Assembly: GCA_965279515.1 (NCBI GenBank)
Contig: CBDIID010000003.1
Location: forward strand, 1,856,001 to 1,920,000
DNA length: 64,000 nt
Reading direction: 5' to 3'
Source: Turneriella sp.
Lineage (GTDB): Bacteria; Spirochaetota; Leptospiria; Turneriellales; Turneriellaceae
Shown here: piece by piece, positions 2,862 through 56,951 of the stretch
Layout: every line of letters starts with the position of its first letter
Position numbering within the stretch: position 1 is the stretch's first letter
Program-made: the position numbers and the translations under genes
The notes under the pieces: generated by a model
Databases searched by the model: none
What the model saw: the letters and a program-made list of their open reading frames with translations, nothing else
What the model was told of the DNA's origin: nothing

Positions 2862-4007
2862 ATGTCAGAAACAATCGGAAAACAAAAACTTTCCTGGCCG
2901 ACCATTGCCTTTCTCACAGGCACGCCGCCCCTTGCCGCTGCGGGAATCTTTTACTGGTTCTATGCGGGCATGTTCAACTGGGCAACCTTCATTCTCTTTC
3001 TGCTGATGTGGACTGCGGTTGGCATTTCCACAACTGCTGGCTACCACCGCCTGTTCACGCACCGCGCCTACGAAGCCTCATGGCCTGTTCGCTTGTTTTT
3101 CCTGCTGTTCGGTGCGGCATCCTGGGAAGCGTCAGCATGGCGCTGGACGATGGACCACCACAAGCACCACCGCTATGTCGACACCGAACGCGATCCTTAC
3201 AACATCCGGCAGGGCTTTTGGTATGCGCACCTGCTCTGGCTGTTTAAAGACCGCGAATACGACCACGCTTCGCCGCTGGGCATCGAGTATGGCAAAGACC
3301 CGCTGATTCGCTTTCAGCATAGATTTTATTACCCGATCGCCATTGGTTTTGCTTTTGTACTGCCGGCGGCGATCGCCGCGATTTGGGGTGATGCCTTCGG
3401 CGGATTTATTCTCGCGGGGCTGGGTGTGGTTGTGATCAACCACCATTTCACATTCTCGATCAACTCATTCTGCCACTGGTTGGGTAAACAACCCTACTCC
3501 GATAAACACTCGGCGCGCGACAGTGTGTTTCTCGCCTTCTTTAACTACGGCGAGGGTTACCACAACTACCACCACGAATTCCCGAACGACTATCGTAACG
3601 GCATCCGCTGGTATCACTGGGACCCGACAAAGTGGCTGATCCGCACTCTGTATGCGCTGAACCTCGTGAAGAACCTGAAATCCGTGTCCGCAGAACTCAT
3701 CGTGAAGCGCAAGATCGCCATGCAGCAAAAACAGGTACAAAATGCTGTCGTGAGCAAGATGCCGTCGTTTGCCGAAATGGCGCAGCAGATGTCTGCACTG
3801 GCTGCCGAACATGCGCTCAGCGCCGCGCGCAAGTGGAGCGAGCTCAGGAAAGAATACGCGCAGTTAAAACAGCAGAAGACCGCCGAGATGCGGGCACAGG
3901 TCGAAGAGGTCAAACGCCGCATGATACTCGCGCGGCGCGAGTTTGAGCTTTTGTTCGAGCGCTACAGAAATCTCAACAAGGGATTTCTGAAAATGGCCGA
4001 GGCATAG
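2862..4007 (+). CDS. Membrane fatty acid (delta-9 acyl-CoA type) desaturase
   Basis: Three His boxes HRLFTH, HHKHH, HNYHH; GEGYHN and DPTKWLI motifs; coiled-coil C-terminus. Confidence 0.93.
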   Translation: MSETIGKQKLSWPTIAFLTGTPPLAAAGIFYWFYAGMFNWATFILFLLMWTAVGISTTAGYHRLFTHRAYEASWPVRLFFLLFGAASWEASAWRWTMDHHKHHRYVDTERDPYNIRQGFWYAHLLWLFKDREYDHASPLGIEYGKDPLIRFQHRFYYPIAIGFAFVLPAAIAAIWGDAFGGFILAGLGVVVINHHFTFSINSFCHWLGKQPYSDKHSARDSVFLAFFNYGEGYHNYHHEFPNDYRNGIRWYHWDPTKWLIRTLYALNLVKNLKSVSAELIVKRKIAMQQKQVQNAVVSKMPSFAEMAQQMSALAAEHALSAARKWSELRKEYAQLKQQKTAEMRAQVEEVKRRMILARREFELLFERYRNLNKGFLKMAEA

Positions 4008-51011: not shown

Positions 51012-51138
51012 CGGATTGGCAATCTGACACTGTCAGGCAGACGAGCAAGGAAAAAATGCCTGCCATGCTGCGAATAGGCCGAAATCCCCGCCCTGTGCAA
51101 TCCACTTGACGCGACGCACCAAAGCACGATGCCCGCGG

Positions 51139-52350
51139 ATGCTCGCTGCGCTTCTGTCTCTGGTAAACGCCGGGGCCGGTCTCGACGCCCACCGCCGCCG
51201 CTACGTCGTCAATACGAACGTCTACGCGCTCATCGTCATTGCCATAACGCTCCCCTATCCTTTTATTTACCTCTACCTGCACGTCGACGTCGACCCGCTC
51301 ATTCTTTCGGGCTCGCTGATTTTTCTCGCCGCCTATTCCGGGGTAATTTTTTTGAATTACCTGACCCTGCATACCCTGGCGAAGCTGCTGTTTTTTGCGG
51401 CGGTGCTCTGCCAGCTGTTCTCGATCTGCGTGATCTTCGGTAAGGGCACGGGGCTCGACCAGTTTTTCTATGCGGCCTTTGTGGGGATCTTCTTCGTCGT
51501 CGACCGGCACCAGAAGATCATGATTATTCCTTCGCTGGCGGTGCTGGCGGCGGAATACCTGCTCATACAATACATCAACGCGTATATTGATCCGCTCGTA
51601 AAAATCTCGCCCGCTACCGCGACGATCATCAGCTATATCTCATCGGGCTCGGTGTTCTCGCTACTCGGCCTGCAGTGCCTGTTTTTTTACTGGGGAAATC
51701 TCAAAGCGGAAACGGATCTCGAAACCGCGCGGCGGCAATCTGACCAGCTGCTGCTGAATATTCTGCCCGAGCCGATTGCCGACGAGCTGAAAAAAACCGG
51801 CGCTGTCGAACCGGTCGAGCACGACTCCGTGACGGTGGTTTTCACCGATTTTGTCGGCTTCACCGCGAGTTCCGAATCGCGCAACCCGACCGATCTCTTG
51901 CGTGATCTCGACGACTGTTTCTCGGCCTTCGATGCGATCATTGAAAAACACGGGCTGGAGAAACTGAAGACGATTGGCGACGCCTACATGTTTGCAGGTG
52001 GTGTGCCGACTGATCTCGCCGACAACGCGGCGCAGTGCATTCTCGCGGCAAAAGAAATCGTCGCCTATGTCGAAAAACGCCGGTCGGATAACCCGCGTTT
52101 CTGGCAGATCCGCGTGGGCGTGCACACGGGGCATCTGATCGCGGGCGTGATTGGCCGCAAAAAATTCATCTACGACGTCTGGGGTGATACGGTCAACACG
52201 GCAAGCCGGCTCGAAGCGGCAGGCGAGCCGGGGCGGATCAACACCTCGGCGGCGACCTATGATTTAATTAAGAAAAAATTCACCTGCACACCGCGCGGCG
52301 AGATTGCAGTGAAGGGCAAGGGTCCGCTAACGATGTACTTCGTGGAATAG
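51139..52350 (+). CDS. Membrane class III adenylate cyclase
   Basis: TMs; FTDFVGFT, KLKTIGDAYM, YDVWGDTVNTASRLE, VKGKG. Confidence 0.93.
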   Translation: MLAALLSLVNAGAGLDAHRRRYVVNTNVYALIVIAITLPYPFIYLYLHVDVDPLILSGSLIFLAAYSGVIFLNYLTLHTLAKLLFFAAVLCQLFSICVIFGKGTGLDQFFYAAFVGIFFVVDRHQKIMIIPSLAVLAAEYLLIQYINAYIDPLVKISPATATIISYISSGSVFSLLGLQCLFFYWGNLKAETDLETARRQSDQLLLNILPEPIADELKKTGAVEPVEHDSVTVVFTDFVGFTASSESRNPTDLLRDLDDCFSAFDAIIEKHGLEKLKTIGDAYMFAGGVPTDLADNAAQCILAAKEIVAYVEKRRSDNPRFWQIRVGVHTGHLIAGVIGRKKFIYDVWGDTVNTASRLEAAGEPGRINTSAATYDLIKKKFTCTPRGEIAVKGKGPLTMYFVE

Positions 52351-52473
52351 GCCTTGTCTGAAATGGGCGAAAAACTTCTTCCGAACGCCCCTGAGGGCCT
52401 GGCCCCTTTTGAACCTCCTCGACTTTTGAACAAAAATGGCTTGAAACCGCATTTGAACAGTATGTTTGAGCAC

Positions 52474-52704
52474 ATGCAAGGGACTTTACATAGGTATGTG
52501 GAAATAGACCCGGCTAAATACGACGGGAAGCCCGTAATTACGGGTACTCGAGTGCCCGTTCAGGCCCTCGTGATGCATTATCGGTCAGGTATGCTCTTAG
52601 AGGAAATACTTGAAGGGTACCCGAACATTACCTCAGCCCAGTTATTTGATGCATTAAGCTACTATTTTGATAATAAAACCGCGATCGATGCCGAATTAGA
52701 ATGA
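52474..52704 (+). CDS. DUF433 antitoxin
   Basis: DP...GKPVITGTRVPV, EEILEGYP, DALSYY; start may be 52462. Confidence 0.92.
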   Translation: MQGTLHRYVEIDPAKYDGKPVITGTRVPVQALVMHYRSGMLLEEILEGYPNITSAQLFDALSYYFDNKTAIDAELE

Positions 52705-53036
52705 TTCGGCTGTATTTGGACGAGGACGTCCACAAGCAAGTAGCCCTTGCTCTCAGGCTAAGAGGGTATGATGTTGTGAGCGTTCATGAGCTGGAAATGT
52801 GGAATTTATCAGACGAAGAACAGCTAGCTTTCGCCACTCAAGACCACAGGGCGATATTCACGTTTAACCGCGGAGATTTTGCCAAATTACATGAGAATTG
52901 GCTATCTTTAGGGAAGAGCCACAACGGCATAATTACCAGTAAGCAACTTACACTTTCCGAAACAATTCAGAGGCTGAACAGGCTTCTATATGCGAAAAAG
53001 GCAGCAGAAATCGAAAACCAGCTTATTTGGTTATGA
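52701..53036 (+). CDS. DUF5615 PIN-like toxin
   Basis: LYLDEDV, GYDV, SDEEQL, TFNRGDF, HNGII; ATGA overlap with DUF433. Confidence 0.92.
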   Translation: MIRLYLDEDVHKQVALALRLRGYDVVSVHELEMWNLSDEEQLAFATQDHRAIFTFNRGDFAKLHENWLSLGKSHNGIITSKQLTLSETIQRLNRLLYAKKAAEIENQLIWL

Positions 53037-53095
53037 CTACGCAAGGTCAATATTCGAGCTTACGGGGCGAAGTTCATTAGTCCAATCGCCCACTT

Positions 53096-53311
53096 CAGAC
53101 AACAAAATTTACCTGCTGCGCCGCTGCGGTGCGGTAGCTCCTCGCGTGCTCGGCCCTACGCGCCAAAGATCGCGGACAAAGCACAAGCGGGGAGCTTGTT
53201 TTGTGCTTTGCCTGGAGGCGCTACGGGCGGATTGAGTGACGCAACATGGCTCTACAGGATGCAAAGTTGAACAAAGATTCACTCAACCTCAGGTAAATTC
53301 CGCGTTAGCTG
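53096..53311 (+). repeat. Long attC-like element (complete)
   Basis: AAC(53101)-aa-AATTTACCTG ... CAGGTAAATT-ccgc-GTT(53304); internal hairpins 53177-53210 and 53232-53286. Confidence 0.7.
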
Positions 53312-53363
53312 CCGTACCCAAGAATTTCAAAGAGTTCACGAAGAGTCAATTTTTCTAAAAAAC

Positions 53364-53399
53364 TTGACTCAATACGTATCCCTCAATATAGTCTACGTA
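53364..53399 (+). promoter_or_regulatory. Sigma70 promoter (leaderless) with two TACGTA operator boxes
   Basis: TTGACT-N17-TATAGT-N6-ATG; TACGTA at 53373 and 53394. Confidence 0.8.
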
Positions 53400-53656
53400 T
53401 GAGTGCTGTGAAACTGACGCTGAAGTTAGAAGAATCTGCCATCAATAAGGCTAAGACTTACGCTAAGGTTAATAGAACTAGCCTATCTAGATTGGTGGAG
53501 ACTTATTTTAATGAAATTTCGGGTGGCACAAAGAAAAAGGCTTCAGCGAAAATTTCGCCCCGCGTAAGGGAATTGTCAGGTATACTTAAGGGGGCAAATA
53601 TTGATTACAGATCCGAAGTTACTTCAATTCTCCGGAAAAAGCATGGTTTAGATTGA
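53399..53656 (+). CDS. RHH antitoxin (DUF6364-like)
   Basis: KLTLKL...AKTYAK..TSLSRLVETYF, SPRVRELSG. Confidence 0.88.
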   Translation: MSAVKLTLKLEESAINKAKTYAKVNRTSLSRLVETYFNEISGGTKKKASAKISPRVRELSGILKGANIDYRSEVTSILRKKHGLD

Positions 53657-54075
53657 AAAAGAAAGTATTCTTTGATTCGGACGTACTGCTCGATGTACTC
53701 ATCCAACGTCCCAAGCACTATGGGGAATCGGCTGAGGTTCTTAGCTTGGCCGATTCTAAGGTCGTAGACGGATACACCTCTACACTCATTTTGTGCAATT
53801 TGCATTATATCCTGCGAAAGCAATTAGGGGAAAAAGTGGCCATGCTTCATGTAGCAAAGTTGCTGGAAATGCTTGAAATACTCGACTTGCGAAAAAATGA
53901 CATTAGCGCCGCTATGAACCTCGGCATGCCAGATTTTGAAGATGCAATTCAATCATGCATCGCATTCAGGACGCGCATGGATTGGATAGTGACACGAAAC
54001 AGTAAAGACTTCAAGAAATCCTCTGTAAAACCCCTGATTCCGGGTGATTTTATCGAACTTGGTTACGGCAGATAA
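53653..54075 (+). CDS. PIN domain (VapC) toxin
   Basis: VFFDSDVLLD, DFEDAIQ, IVTRNSKDF; TTG start overlapping the antitoxin stop. Confidence 0.92.
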   Translation: MKKKVFFDSDVLLDVLIQRPKHYGESAEVLSLADSKVVDGYTSTLILCNLHYILRKQLGEKVAMLHVAKLLEMLEILDLRKNDISAAMNLGMPDFEDAIQSCIAFRTRMDWIVTRNSKDFKKSSVKPLIPGDFIELGYGR

Positions 54076-54210
54076 AAAAATTTAGCTGCGCGTGTGCTCC
54101 CTAAGGGAGATTCGCTTCGCGCATCCAGGGTCTCCGCAGCAAAACCCGCGGACAAAGCATAAGACGCTAGCTTACCAGCAGCAAGCCGGACACTTGTCTT
54201 GTGCTTTGCC
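54069..54210 (+). repeat. Second, decayed/truncated attC-like element
   Basis: Left arm 18/21 identical to 53096-53116 with AAC changed to AAA; shares CGCGGACAAAGCAYAAG and CTTGTYTTGTGCTTTGCC; no matching right arm. Confidence 0.7.
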
Positions 54211-54343
54211 CCGAAGTACTCCGTGCCCATGAAGCAATATAATAAATTCCTCCCCCGGAAACTCGTTTACAATTTGCCAGCAAATAACTCACAGCGCTAT
54301 GATAAAAATTCCGACCGATAAACCGTTCAAAATACCAGGGGTT

Positions 54344-54601
54344 GTGAAACAGTTAGTCATCGCGGTAGCAATCCTCGTTTTTTATGGAAATTGCCGCTCA
54401 ACCCCCGATCACCACGTCTTTTGTACCCAGGCCAAAATGCGCCGCGCCGAAGCCGGTAAAGGCACACCCAATGACAGACAAGTCCGCTGCCACGGCCTGA
54501 CCCAGGCGCGTTTAGCAGCGGCGCCGGGACGCGATTTTTCAAAGTACGCCGATTGTGTGCTCGAAGCCGAGAATAATATCACGGCGGGAAAATGCGAATA
54601 A
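54344..54601 (+). CDS. Small Cys-rich lipoprotein, hypothetical
   Basis: GTG after CAGGGG; KQLVIAVAILVFYGNC signal; four further Cys. Confidence 0.65.
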   Translation: MKQLVIAVAILVFYGNCRSTPDHHVFCTQAKMRRAEAGKGTPNDRQVRCHGLTQARLAAAPGRDFSKYADCVLEAENNITAGKCE

Positions 54602-54620
54602 GGATGCTTTTGCCCATAAT

Positions 54621-55385
54621 ATGAAAAAAATCAACGCCCCACGCCGGATATTCGCCATTGCAGTAATCCTGCTGTTCCTCTGCAATCTCTCCGCTACGGA
54701 GCAGAGCCCGCCGAAATTCAAAGCCATCGCTTTTGACTATTTTGTACTCTTTGATCCAAACTCCGTAATTCCGACCGTCGAAGAAATTTATCCCGGGAAA
54801 GGCATGGAGTTCACTAAAATGTGGCGCAGCAAACAATTCGAGTATGGTTTCTTAAGATCGATTACCAATCGCCATGCCGATTTTTTCGAGGTTACCGGTG
54901 ATGCTTTGGAATACACTGCCGCCGCAATGAAACTAAAGTTAGAACCCGCAATACGAACCCGTCTTTTGAATGCTTATCTGACACTGAAACCCTGGCCCGA
55001 CACGATTGCGGCTCTAAAAAAACTAAAAGCCTCGGGGCTGCGGATTATCACCATCGCAAATTTCAGCAAAAAGATGCTGCAAGCCAATGCCGACAACGCC
55101 GGAATCACCGGTCTATTTGATGAATTGTTAAGTACAGAGGTCAATGGCACTTACAAACCTGATCCGCGCGCCTATGAGCTGGGCCTGAAAAGGTTGAATC
55201 TCAAAAAACATGAAATCGTATTTGCAGCCTTTGGCGGCTGGGATGCCTATGGAGCTAAGAATTTTGGATACCCGACCTACTGGGTAAACAGGTTCAACCT
55301 GCCGACTGAGAATCTGGGCATTTCTGCAGACCGGACCTCAAACGATATTCAGGGCCTGCTGGATTTTATTTTCCCGAAACCCTAA
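54621..55385 (+). CDS. Haloacid dehalogenase type II-like hydrolase with signal peptide
   Basis: AIAFD, WRSKQFEY, YKPDPRAY, GWDAYGAK, WVNR. Confidence 0.88.
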   Translation: MKKINAPRRIFAIAVILLFLCNLSATEQSPPKFKAIAFDYFVLFDPNSVIPTVEEIYPGKGMEFTKMWRSKQFEYGFLRSITNRHADFFEVTGDALEYTAAAMKLKLEPAIRTRLLNAYLTLKPWPDTIAALKKLKASGLRIITIANFSKKMLQANADNAGITGLFDELLSTEVNGTYKPDPRAYELGLKRLNLKKHEIVFAAFGGWDAYGAKNFGYPTYWVNRFNLPTENLGISADRTSNDIQGLLDFIFPKP

Positions 55386-55396
55386 CGATACGACGG

Positions 55397-55834
55397 TCAG
55401 ACTACCGTAACCGAGATAATCTTATCGTCTTTGCGCAGCGCATTGACAACGTCCATATCGTGCGTGCGGCCGAAAACCGTGTGCACACCGTCGAGATGCG
55501 GCTGCGCCTTGTGGCAAATAAAGAACTGGCTGCCACCGGTATCTTTGCCCGCATGCGCCATCGACAGGCTGCCCGCCATGTGTTTGTTCTCGTTGATCTC
55601 GCACTTGATCGTATAGCCGGGACCACCCGTCCCTGGCATGCCTGACGCGCCCGCGCGTGTATTGGGACAACCGCCCTGGACCATAAAATTGGCGATCACA
55701 CGGTGAAAGGCGAGACCGTCGTAAAATTTCTCATTGGCGAGCTTTACGAAGTTGGCGACCGTTGCGGGAGCTTCCTTGTCATAGAGTTCAAAGCTCATTT
55801 TCCCTTTACTGGTTTCGATAATGACTTCAGGCAT
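55397..55834 (-). CDS. ppiA: Cyclophilin peptidyl-prolyl isomerase
   Basis: [35 protein letters not shown]. Confidence 0.93.
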
Positions 55835-55883
55835 AAGGTTCAAATGCATTTTCCAGTCGGCGCGACAAGAAATTCAGAACTGC

Positions 55884-56453
55884 CTAGATCCTCAGCGAAG
55901 CCCGGAAACCCCTGACGGCATAATAAGATTCCGCGCCATTATGGTAGGTGAAGACCTGATCGTAGCGGCGATCGCAAAAGATCGCGCCGCCCAGTTTACG
56001 GATATGCGCCGGAGTTTTGACCCAGCTTGAAGTTTTTGTATCGAATTCGCCGAAACTTTGCAGCTTACGGTATTCTTCTTCGGTTAAAATCTCAACACCC
56101 ATCGCCGCCGCCATGTTCACGGCGCTGTCCTTCGGCTTGTGTTCTTTGCGGGCTTTTAACGCTTCGTGGTCATAGCACAGGCTGCGGCGCTCCTTCGGGC
56201 TTTCGGCAGCGCAATCATAAAAAACGTACTCTCCCGTCTTTTTATCATGCGCCACAACATCGGGCTCGCCGCCGGTCCTTTCCATTTCAGAAAGCGACCA
56301 CAGTTTATCCGCAATGCTCACGAGCTTTGCCTGCACTTTGTCCCAGGAAAGATCTTTGTGCCGGTTCGTATTTTTCTCAAAGCGGGATTTCAGTATTTTG
56401 AAAAAATCTTCTTGTTGCTTCGGCGAAAGTTTATTTATAGCAACCTTGGCCAT
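55884..56453 (-). CDS. DUF4256 domain protein
   Basis: EMERTGGEPDVV, RRSLCYD, FDTKTSSW, YHNGAESYY. Confidence 0.88.
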   Translation of the reverse strand: MAKVAINKLSPKQQEDFFKILKSRFEKNTNRHKDLSWDKVQAKLVSIADKLWSLSEMERTGGEPDVVAHDKKTGEYVFYDCAAESPKERRSLCYDHEALKARKEHKPKDSAVNMAAAMGVEILTEEEYRKLQSFGEFDTKTSSWVKTPAHIRKLGGAIFCDRRYDQVFTYHNGAESYYAVRGFRASLRI

Positions 56454-56465
56454 GGTTGTCAGACC

Positions 56466-56942
56466 CTAAAGCGGAGTAATATCACCCTGAGCAACGAAGT
56501 CTCTCTGCTTTCCCTTTTTATCCGTATAAAAATATAACCTTTTACCCAGTGTGGGATAATCACACACGTCGAATTCCTGCCTGTCACCGCCAACGAGGTA
56601 GACCAGATCTTCGTTACCCGAATTTACTAATGCATGGCTCGGGCCTTCCGCGGGAAGTCCTACGAAATCACCCGCGACAACTTCAACCTTCTCGTCGTCG
56701 AGCTCAAGCATACCCTTACCCGAAATAATATAAATGAACTCGTCTGCTAATTTATGCGAATGCCGGACCGTCGTCGACTTGCCCGGTTTTACGTGCGTCA
56801 TATGGATGCCGATGCGGCTTAAACCTGTGAGATCGCCCAGCGAAACCGAATGCCTTTCGACGCTGGTATCGAGCGGGTGCGATTTTTTCTCGAGCGAAGC
56901 CTCGAGATTTCCCGTTTTAACTACAAACTTTTTCAAAGCCAT
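56466..56942 (-). CDS. Cupin domain protein
   Basis: SLGDLTGL, HSH...DEFIYIISG, GDFVG, HALVN, YP. Confidence 0.88.
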   Translation of the reverse strand: MALKKFVVKTGNLEASLEKKSHPLDTSVERHSVSLGDLTGLSRIGIHMTHVKPGKSTTVRHSHKLADEFIYIISGKGMLELDDEKVEVVAGDFVGLPAEGPSHALVNSGNEDLVYLVGGDRQEFDVCDYPTLGKRLYFYTDKKGKQRDFVAQGDITPL

Positions 56943-56951
56943 ACCCGAAGG

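Follow-up and report, generated by a model that had tools for sequence, protein, structure and literature searches.

Two putative toxin-antitoxin gene cassettes of a non-classical integron variant behind a cyclase gene of Turneriella sp.

Two putative toxin-antitoxin (TA) operons downstream of a cyclase gene of Turneriella sp. are gene cassettes, their two inverted repeat pairs are the closing stems of these cassettes, and the system to which they belong is a non-classical integron variant. It is likely that the cassettes were inserted successively, by an Xer-like recombinase acting in trans, at the attI-like end of the cyclase gene. The window, i.e. the whole stretch of DNA analysed, comprises 64 kb of a genome (G000) that is 99.99 % complete; genomes of relatives are coded G001 to G013. 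A CALIN is defined, in excerpts of Cury et al. 2016 (PMC4889954), as at least two attC sites without an integron integrase. The window harbours two attC-like sites, one full (E 9.6e-63) and one partial (E 1.7e-7), with no tyrosine recombinase gene nearby. A first-pass annotation had assigned the locus to the integrons, which holds for the cassette system but not for a classical integron, as no IntI scored over cut-off in 41 genomes. No paper joining Turneriella with an integron was found in the literature.

Both repeat pairs described in the first-pass annotation are real. In unit 1, positions 52354-52370 pair with 53086-53102 (17 nt, 16/17 or 94 %, 715 nt between the arms), and in unit 2, 53305-53322 pair with 54058-54075 (18 nt, 16/18 or 89 %, 735 nt between); the arm sequences of the two units are not alike, as had been noted. 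Within the region 52000-54700, pairing of at least 16/17 at a gap of 500-1000 nt was observed in one pairing window and in 0 of 100 mononucleotide shuffles, and pairing of at least 16/18 in three, where the shuffles gave 0.05 on average and never more than 2. Both pairs therefore exceed chance. The left ends were said to start with (G)TT, which applies to unit 2 (GTT, 53304-53306), while the TT of unit 1 is preceded by C52353 and not by G. The right ends were said to close with AA(C), which applies to unit 1 (AAC, 53101-53103), while unit 2 has AAA (54075-54077). The stop codon of the unit 2 toxin gene (TAA, 54073-54075) does lie within the right repeat, and the units are indeed AT-richer than the flank, with a GC content of 0.39-0.49 over 52350-54150 versus 0.56-0.58 in the cyclase gene. 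The unit ends, however, had been set too early (53102 and 54076), and the attC-like sites of ~217 nt that follow each operon had been overlooked. These structured repeats place the cassette ends at 53304 and at about 54255-54266 (Table 1).

Table 1 Features of the cassette locus (positions in the window)
Feature	Position	Strand	Basis and remarks
Left junction, attI-like half-site TTCGTGGAATAGGCC	52339..52353	+	cyclase last codons (F-V-E-stop) + 3 nt
Crossover, left junction	after C52353	+	head-site comparison
Cassette 1, 951 nt, putative TA operon and intact attC-like site	52354..53304	+	repeat model, end pairing
Cassette 1 5' stem arm, closing-stem positions 2-18	52354..52370	+	inverted repeat; A52363 = position-11 A.C partner
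DUF433 antitoxin-like gene	52354..52704	+	PF04255, E 5e-19, residues 49-104
DUF5615 (PIN-like, Mut7-C-like) putative toxin gene	52701..53036	+	PF18480, E 5e-17
attC1	53086..53304	+	nhmmer 53092-53313, E 9.6e-63, full length
Cassette 2, putative TA operon, own promoter, decayed attC	53305..54266	+	right end uncertain, 54253-54266
Cassette 2 5' stem arm	53305..53322	+	inverted repeat
Sigma-70-like promoter TTGACT-17-TATAGT, cassette 2	53364..53392	+	10/12 match
DUF6364 antitoxin-like gene	53399..53656	+	PF19891, E 2e-20
PIN_3 (VapC-like) putative toxin gene	53653..54075	+	PF13470, E 1.5e-17; stop TAA inside R''
attC2 remnant	54058..54252	+	nhmmer 54066-54238, E 1.7e-7, model positions 2-150/225

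To judge from their sequence, the operons resemble type II TA modules, being two-gene operons with the predicted antitoxin gene first, start/stop overlaps of 4 nt (the DUF5615 gene overlaps the DUF433 stop codon by 4 nt) and Pfam matches well above cut-off. Unlike usual type II modules, these putative pairs appear to be packaged as mobile cassettes. DUF433 and DUF5615 presumably form a TA pair, as in comparative-genomic predictions. The DUF433 reading frame is listed from TTG 52354, but translation more likely begins at ATG 52363 or at an ATG further downstream. Of the promoters proposed earlier, that of unit 2 was confirmed, while a scan gave none ahead of the genes of unit 1. TA cassettes with their own promoters are also described for sedentary integrons in the consulted part of PMC13108822.

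Both units carry a copy of an attC-like repeat family of this genome, for which nhmmer gave 152 matches, mostly in two arrays and two of them in the window. The larger array contains 77 copies (75 full length) and the smaller one 52 (51 full length), all on one strand. Tens of cassettes per array on one strand are also characteristic of sedentary chromosomal integrons such as the Vibrio-type superintegron, and small integrase-less clusters (satellites) elsewhere in the genome resemble CALINs. As in sedentary integrons, the cassette ends in an imperfect palindrome, R''(..AAC)-L''...L'-R'(GTT..), with the first TT of the cassette in its own site and crossover at G|TT. In 121 cassettes the 5' end matched the R'' side of its own site (20 nt before AAC) at a median of 17/20, versus 9/20 for the end of the next cassette and a mean of 9.5 for random pairs, which fixes the crossover at G|TT. 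The earlier proposal of integron-type cassettes, pairing with their own ends and recombining at G|TT, thus describes a design that is found genome-wide. Closing-stem pairing is at least 75 % through position 18; position 11 is A.C in 117/121 cassettes and Watson-Crick in 0/121. Unit 1 fits this rule exactly, its single mismatch being the position-11 A.C. On the bottom strand only, the A.C turns into a T.G wobble, and position-11 A.C/T.G appears, as read from the sequences, to be the strand marker of these sites. Classical integrons are not known to have such a closing stem of about 18 bp that is cassette-specific with a fixed A.C/T.G at position 11.

Classical attC sites are usually about 57-141 nt long and form a short hairpin in which extrahelical bases mark the bottom strand. 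Unlike these, the sites found here have a median length (R''-R') of 217 nt, with a range of 184-290, and a branched fold. An L stem and three hairpins are common to 126 distinct sites and show many compensatory pairs, one stem pair being AT in 61, GC in 43 and CG in 17 of them. When 52000-54700 was compared with Rfam at E<=1, no known RNA family emerged, and the only two matches were sub-threshold and due to chance.

Cassette 1 is intact and cassette 2 is decayed. In attC1 the 3' stem arm (53086-53103, ending in AAC) is followed by L'', three internal hairpins, L' and G53304 of R'. The attC2 remnant keeps a 3' stem arm ending in AAA instead of AAC, the L'' box and the first two hairpins, with a possible leftover of L', TAAATTCC, at 54241-54248; it lacks GTT as well as the third hairpin. 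At position 11 of cassette 2, G53314 is Watson-Crick paired with C, unlike in all 121 array cassettes. With no attC upstream and a damaged attC downstream, both cassettes are now probably fixed.

The location of the cassettes just 3' of the cyclase stop codon, given in the first-pass annotation, stands; its statement that no attI is present does not, as the left junction carries an attI-like half-site. Array heads and satellites show AATAG at -7 to -3 before the crossover. Both array heads of the genome read ...AATAGAC|GTT, those of relatives CAGGGAATAGAC|GTT, ...AATAGAA|GTT and ...AATAAAC|GTT, and the insertion point in the window reads GGAATAGGC|C (also given as TTCGTGGAATAGGC|C). AATAG has the same offset in satellites 2804444 and 3058495 and in one satellite of G011. 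The background frequency of the motif in this comparison is 1.9e-4 per position. G000 has 3 matches to the pattern TTC[AG][TG][AG]GAATAGG[CT], all of them at satellite heads. Cassette heads were not located in the satellites at 2882635, 2148462, 3634308 and 4812544 of this genome, nor in L115 of G011 and L118 of G002. Relatives' cyclases end in MYFVD* or MYFVE*, with conserved length and largely conserved sequence, which indicates that the left-junction sequence is native to the cyclase. Judged by sequence, the insertion point resembles, and may mimic, the attI-like motif of the array heads. The base before the TT of cassette 1 is C and not G, which counts against insertion.

The empty-site check suggested earlier was borne out. 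In five of the nine relatives' loci the cyclase stop codon is followed, after 5-45 nt, by the homologue of window position 56946 onward, a convergent gene that forms the cyclase-YebC junction, and the attC model gave no match at E<=10 in any of the nine cyclase loci. The insertion site was therefore once empty. In the closest relative, G001, other cassettes are found at the same locus, which suggests repeated site-specific events; the contig there stops inside the cyclase gene, short of the left junction. Homologues of the cassettes also occur elsewhere. G003:C23 has a homologue of cassette 1 (72 %) as an ordinary array cassette, with a full attC on either side. Three relatives possess unit 2 homologues, at about 65 % identity, in which the model detects no full attC, and this argues against insertion; two of these three loci retain an R'' ending in AAC.

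An unlikely alternative origin is that a chromosomal rearrangement brought a piece of a large array here, along with a left end derived from attI. Rearrangement is one of the CALIN origins listed in the excerpts of Cury et al. 2016 (PMC4889954), and rearrangements have occurred in this genome, as its arrays already lie apart from the recombinase gene (see below). The attI look of the left junction would fit as well. So would the length of the extra DNA relative to the relatives, 4.6 kb (52351-56945), which exceeds the 1.9-kb array; beyond attC2, on its right, 2.7 kb contain genes for a HAD hydrolase and a cyclophilin and two further genes but no attC, and this also counts against insertion. 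However, the attI-like motif consists of the cyclase's own last codons, conserved in relatives, and homology to the relatives extends to the cyclase stop codon. Moreover, the 14-nt motif recurs in two other satellites, where the upstream sequence is unrelated, and the closest relative has its different cassettes at this very locus.

The genome contains four PF00589 genes, none of which lies in the 64-kb window, as had been stated for intI. One encodes a 366-aa Xer-like recombinase (C3:2926093-2927193), located ~1 Mb from the window and adjoining no array; likewise, no recombinase gene is found among the ORFs next to either end of the two large arrays. A platform consisting of a divergent tyrosine recombinase gene and a head site, comparable to the attI beside the integrase gene of sedentary integrons, is present in G002, G005, G007, G011 and G013 but not in G000. 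The array-head gene of these five relatives encodes a recombinase without the IntI-specific insert. The 366-aa enzyme is the best match to the array-head recombinases of G002, G005, G007 and G013 (226-373 bits), compared to about 77-123 bits for the other recombinases of the genome. Positions matching the catalytic R, K, H, R, H and Y are invariant in the alignment. The tie between this enzyme and the arrays is one of position in relatives only, which weighs against the insertion reading. In a comparison by PDB search and BLAST, the array-head recombinase aligns to residues 5-172 and 244-317 of IntI4 (2a3v), and ~30 residues replace the 71 found in VchIntIA; a further difference from IntI is that the N-terminus of the enzyme is extended by about 100 aa. 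The IntI-specific segment, which binds folded attC in classical integrons, is absent from the 366-aa recombinase, and this too weighs against the insertion reading.

The locus might also be the relic of a classical integron with ordinary attC sites, whose canonical IntI was lost or left unassembled, but this is very improbable. The R''-L''...L'-R' layout with AAC/GTT, the pairing of own ends and the head site are as in integrons, and half of the CALINs occur in genomes without IntI, according to the part of PMC4889954 consulted. However, TIGR02249, whose cut-off is 265 bits, scores 93 bits at best in G000, in a comparison whose control genomes included no integron-bearing positive, and none of the 41 genomes searched (genus, family, order and class) exceeded it. 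The arrays of relatives are instead headed by the insert-less recombinase, and the sites reach ~217 nt and contain three internal hairpins. It is hardly conceivable that the units are ordinary chromosomal TA loci or MITE-like units with terminal inverted repeats arising by chance or serving as operators or transposon termini: palindromic operators are frequent at TA loci and unit 2 homologues lack a detectable full attC, but the repeats exceed chance, follow the rule of the 121 cassettes in position, length (~18), TT/AA ends and the A.C of unit 1, differ in arm sequence between the units, and come with no target-site duplication (52346-52353 versus 53103-53110, nor at the ends of unit 2), no tyrosine recombinase in the window and no transposase family match among seven ORFs scanned (51106-55385).

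Each cassette runs from the TT after G|TT to the G of its ~217-nt attC-like site. Under successive insertion, the favoured reading, it would leave in circular form, its site would fold on the bottom strand, and the recombinase would exchange strands between AAC/GTT and a double-stranded ...GAATAGRY|GTT. Cassette 2 would have entered first and decayed since, by the change of AAC to AAA, loss of the wobble and loss of the 3' third of attC2; cassette 1 would have followed at the same head position, where it is still intact. From the decay alone we infer this order. Self-promoted TA genes likely favour retention of the cassettes. The make-up of small satellite arrays, which consist of TA cassettes, may be explained in the same way, as these cassettes have promoters of their own and resist loss. 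The proposed events resemble attG insertion by IntI, in which, in the accessible part of the preprint, a cassette with its attC enters a double-stranded genomic site off the platform and yields an integrase-less cassette locus (bioRxiv 10.1101/2022.09.11.507474). According to the same part, a GWT consensus that differs from attI suffices as attG for IntI1 (bioRxiv 10.1101/2022.09.11.507474). Unlike attG, the satellite heads share a motif of ~14 nt, TTCGTRGAATAGGY, that resembles the head site of the platform, and the window has C before TT.

The definition of integrons is based on IntI and on the special segment with which this enzyme reads folded attC hairpins. To our knowledge, IntI-based surveys report no integrons in several phyla, and Bacillota are held to have none. 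A full cassette economy appears here to be served by a recombinase without the IntI segment, on sites twice the usual size; it comprises a head site, two arrays (77 and 52 cassettes), satellites and TA cassettes. The chances are about even that this represents a second integron lineage, with an insert-less Xer-like integrase and branched sites of ~217 nt, that seeds loci at gene-end mimics of TTCGTRGAATAGGY and whose design is also found beside relatives of the recombinase in other phyla, including Bacillota. If so, a widespread gene-capture system has been missed by standard integron searches. No integron-like cassette system with an insert-less recombinase was found in the titles and opening lines of abstracts in the literature. 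For relatives of the recombinase in other phyla, 80 loci were compared with the attC model of G000 and gave no match; the repeats there belong to other sequence families. Such a lineage would further be marked by a closing stem of 18 bp that is specific to the cassette and in which a G.T wobble of the bottom strand is fixed. The locus offers a natural experiment, with an empty site in relatives, a mimic of the head site and a fresh and a decayed cassette side by side, and supplies a concrete target sequence and substrate for studying the action of the enzyme.

Four public runs contain this stretch, probably from the source sample and all as assembled contigs, in which circles and rare excisions would not show; no recombination was observed. 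A joint of 52197 to 53099 in one wastewater contig was dismissed, with only 22 nt on one side. Mobility is supported by metagenome contigs in which both cassettes are present (90-98 % identity) but the flanks of the window are not, and one of these contigs terminates exactly at 52354.

The two toxin-antitoxin (TA) units behind the cyclase gene form a two-cassette satellite, a small cluster apart from the main arrays, of a non-classical integron variant, located at a mimic of a head site. The first-pass annotation, which had described an integrase-less array of two TA cassettes with integron geometry, was essentially right, but the integron variant is not the classical one. Unit 1 encodes DUF433 and DUF5615 (PIN-like) proteins and unit 2 DUF6364 and PIN_3 proteins. 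The two inverted-repeat pairs were present where they had been reported. Between 52000 and 54700, one pair of at least 16/17 with its arms 500-1000 nt apart was observed and none in 100 mononucleotide shuffles, while three windows of at least 16/18 were observed versus a shuffle mean of 0.05. The noted AT-richness of both units was borne out as well (GC 0.39-0.49 vs 0.56-0.58 in the cyclase gene). Other details held in part: the promoter of unit 2 was recovered, but the promoter scan made no call ahead of the unit 1 genes, where a weaker candidate had been proposed; unit 1 starts with TT preceded by C instead of G, and the right arm of unit 2 ends in AAA, not AAC. Ahead of the DUF433 domain (52403-52458), three direct copies (C)TTTTGAAC or CATTTGAAC are spaced by 17 and 27 nt, possibly serving cassette 1 as an operator or promoter region.

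Coordinates of the cassettes and associated features (window positions unless contig CBDIID010000003.1, C3, is indicated)
Feature	Position	Strand	Remarks
MASE7-adenylate/guanylate cyclase gene	ends 52350		upstream of units
14-nt head motif	52339; C3:2804430; C3:3058481		
Cassette 1	52354-53304		intact
Arms of unit 1 (I4)	52354-52370 vs 53086-53102		16/17
attC1	53092-53313		E 9.6e-63, full length
Cassette 2	53305 to ~54255-54266		decayed
Arms of unit 2 (I5)	53305-53322 vs 54058-54075		16/18
Promoter of unit 2	53364-53392		TTGACT-17-TATAGT
attC2	54066-54238		E 1.7e-7, model positions 2-150 of 225
2.7-kb part	54267-56945		100-aa ORF without Pfam match, HAD hydrolase, cyclophilin, 189-aa protein, cupin; no attC
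Array 1	C3:85783-169925	all minus	77 matches, 75 full length
Array 2	C3:3734373-3804596	all minus	52 matches, 51 full length
366-aa recombinase	C3:2926093-2927193		

A conserved element of ~210 nt, overlooked in the first-pass annotation, lies 3' of each TA pair, and its core motifs occur tens of times genome-wide. An attC-like profile built on 59 copies gave 152 matches in the genome (E<=1e-3), those outside the two large arrays forming small clusters that include the two of the window. The parts of the element run in the order [..AAC]-spacer-TTTACCTG...three hairpins...CAGGTAAA-spacer-[GTT..]; this is the R''-L''...L'-R' plan of attC. The R''-to-R' distance has a median of 217 nt (range 184-290), measured on 129 sites with anchors from 133 full-length matches. 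The L stem and all three internal hairpins are preserved through numerous compensatory changes across 126 distinct copies; one such pair is AT in 61, GC in 43 and CG in 17. The bottom-strand fold of attC1 includes the closing stem; in the fold of attC2 closing was not achieved. On the coding strand, TTTTGTGCTTT follows the central hairpin (53183-53209 and 54150-54211), a combination labelled terminator-like by the scan. If transcribed, the sites could insulate cassettes, which would fit the need of TA cassettes for promoters of their own. Both window TA pairs have the same orientation as their sites. DUF433/DUF5615 paralogues (~38-40% amino acid identity) within array 2 (C3:3761144-3761715 and 3780811-3781382) lie on the strand opposite to the attC sites of that array.

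Comparison of 121 cassettes between consecutive attC-like sites supported the proposed crossover at G/TT (slash, junction), with the 5' end of each cassette pairing with its own R''. In 20-nt comparisons, the cassette start (from the base that follows the upstream G of GTT) pairs with the stretch preceding its own AAC at 17/20 positions (median), whereas the start of the next cassette, though physically within the same site, reaches a median of 9/20 (random pairs, mean 9.5 of 20). The crossover is therefore at G/TT, and both arms of a closing stem belong to one and the same cassette. Pairing is at least 75% up to position 18 of this stem. At position 11, 117/121 cassettes have A.C on the top strand and none has a Watson-Crick pair; on the bottom strand A.C becomes a T.G wobble. 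The sole mismatch of unit 1, A52363 vs C53093, falls exactly at position 11. Unit 2 breaks the rule with a G-C pair there, AAA in place of AAC, two further mismatches and the loss of the 3' third of attC2. Cassette 1 is intact and looks live; cassette 2 is decayed, a fossil.

The left flank was matched up to the cyclase stop in all 13 same-genus genomes (70-81% identity), and the locus was compared in detail in nine relatives. The empty site that the first-pass annotation had suggested looking for was found in five of these (L012, L015, L016, L017, L018), where 5-45 nt separate the cyclase stop from a convergent YebC-like gene that is homologous to the window from 56946 on. The others have 654 nt in between (1/9), other sequence (2/9) or a contig end (1/9), and no attC-like match was found at any of the nine loci. 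Compared with these loci, 52351-56945 (4.6 kb) is therefore extra in the window; it consists of the two cassettes and the 2.7-kb part. The latter is also missing from the cyclase-YebC junction in five relatives. The closest relative (G001, ~80% identity) carries a different cassette with attC, another PIN TA pair, cyclophilin and YebC at this locus, so cassette content differs between the two genomes. The cyclophilin thus occurs at this locus of G001 too (L019), beside other cassettes. In three relatives (L010, L013 and, in G012, L014 at 3150-3270) what follows the cyclase stop is not the YebC-like gene but unrelated sequence, in G012 after GAATAGCGGC. The genus seems to be variable at this junction.

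First cassettes of relatives are preceded by CAGGGAATAGAC/GTT, ..AATAGAA/GTT or ..AATAAAC/GTT, and a satellite of G011 by GTGTAATAGCA/GTT. In the window genome, 5' junctions were located for nine clusters, two of which are merely preceded by attC, leaving seven true heads. Both arrays have ..AATAGAC/GTT, the window TTCGTGGAATAGGC/C and two further satellites TTCGTAGAATAGGT/ and TTCAGAGAATAGGT/; two more heads are near-matches. AATAG occupies -7..-3 in 5/7 of these heads, against a background of 1.9e-4 per position for the short AATAG-type motif. The 14-nt form TTC[AG][TG][AG]GAATAGG[CT] has just three occurrences genome-wide, all immediately 5' of the first cassette in a satellite. At all three sites it terminates an open frame (..FVE-stop, ..FVE-stop, ..FRE-stop). 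In the window it is the cyclase's own F-V-E-stop, and it is native there, because cyclases of relatives end in MYFVD-stop or MYFVE-stop at the same length. The end of the cyclase gene would have served as a head-site mimic for insertion of the cassettes.

G003:C23 has a 72% homologue of cassette 1 with a full attC on either side, the homology beginning at the first bases of the cassette. Unit 2 homologues (~65% identity) were found in G012, G009 and G010, in none of which the profile detected a full attC beside them; an R'' ending in AAC is kept in G012 and G010, and the start G/TTAGCTGACAT in G012. In groundwater and wastewater metagenomes, contigs with both cassettes (90-98% identity) lack the flanks of the window, and one contig terminates at 52354. 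Summed depth of the attC part is very high in these runs: at 53122-53215 summed contig depth reaches ~17,000 vs 4-40 for the cassettes (X5, X8, X11), so that sites of this family appear to be abundant there.

In line with the reported absence of intI, none of the four tyrosine recombinases of the genome lies in the 64-kb window. The integron-integrase model TIGR02249 scored at best 93 bits in this genome (cut-off 265), and none of 41 genomes from the same genus, family, order and class had a match that reached the cut-off. No recombinase was found at the ends of the two large arrays. In G002, G005, G007 and G013 a 366-408-aa recombinase is divergent at the array head, and in G011 its match, a 367-aa open frame, and the first site are 3.2 kb apart. 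The 366-aa protein of the window genome is their clear counterpart (226-373 bits, 39-52% identity; the other three recombinases of the genome, ~77-123 bits). Among solved structures, its best relative is a XerC-like protein. It can be aligned with IntI4 on either side of the IntI-specific segment, in place of whose 71 residues it has ~30.

The layout and logic of the system are those outlined for sedentary chromosomal integrons with CALIN satellites (PMC4889954), and it matches cassette insertion at genomic sites (as outlined in bioRxiv 2022.09.11.507474) and promoter-bearing TA cassettes (as outlined in PMC13108822). It differs from the classical integron family in integrase segment, site size and site form, and no description of such a system was found in searches of open-access full text. 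Recombinase relatives with 33-47% identity are spread over many phyla (best 80 of 572 loci kept); self-BLAST gave some 40-400-nt repeat in 42/80 of these, and several have 100-240-nt direct repeats at cassette-like spacing. Three were inspected, L070 (JAEZJF010000022.1, 9600-13560) and L095 from Bacillota MAGs and L053 from Wolfebacteria. Their arrays of 170-200-nt, AAC/GTT-bounded repeats adjoin 40-41% identical recombinase relatives; the repeats are bounded by ..TAAC and GTTA.. in L070 and L095, and in L053 form a hairpin bounded by AAC...GTT. Because own-end pairing is 17/18 with position 11 as the sole mismatch in 3/4 cassettes of L070, the same cassette design appears to occur in another phylum. 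In L095, with rough anchors, 1/4 cassettes shows 17/18 pairing with the position 11 mismatch.
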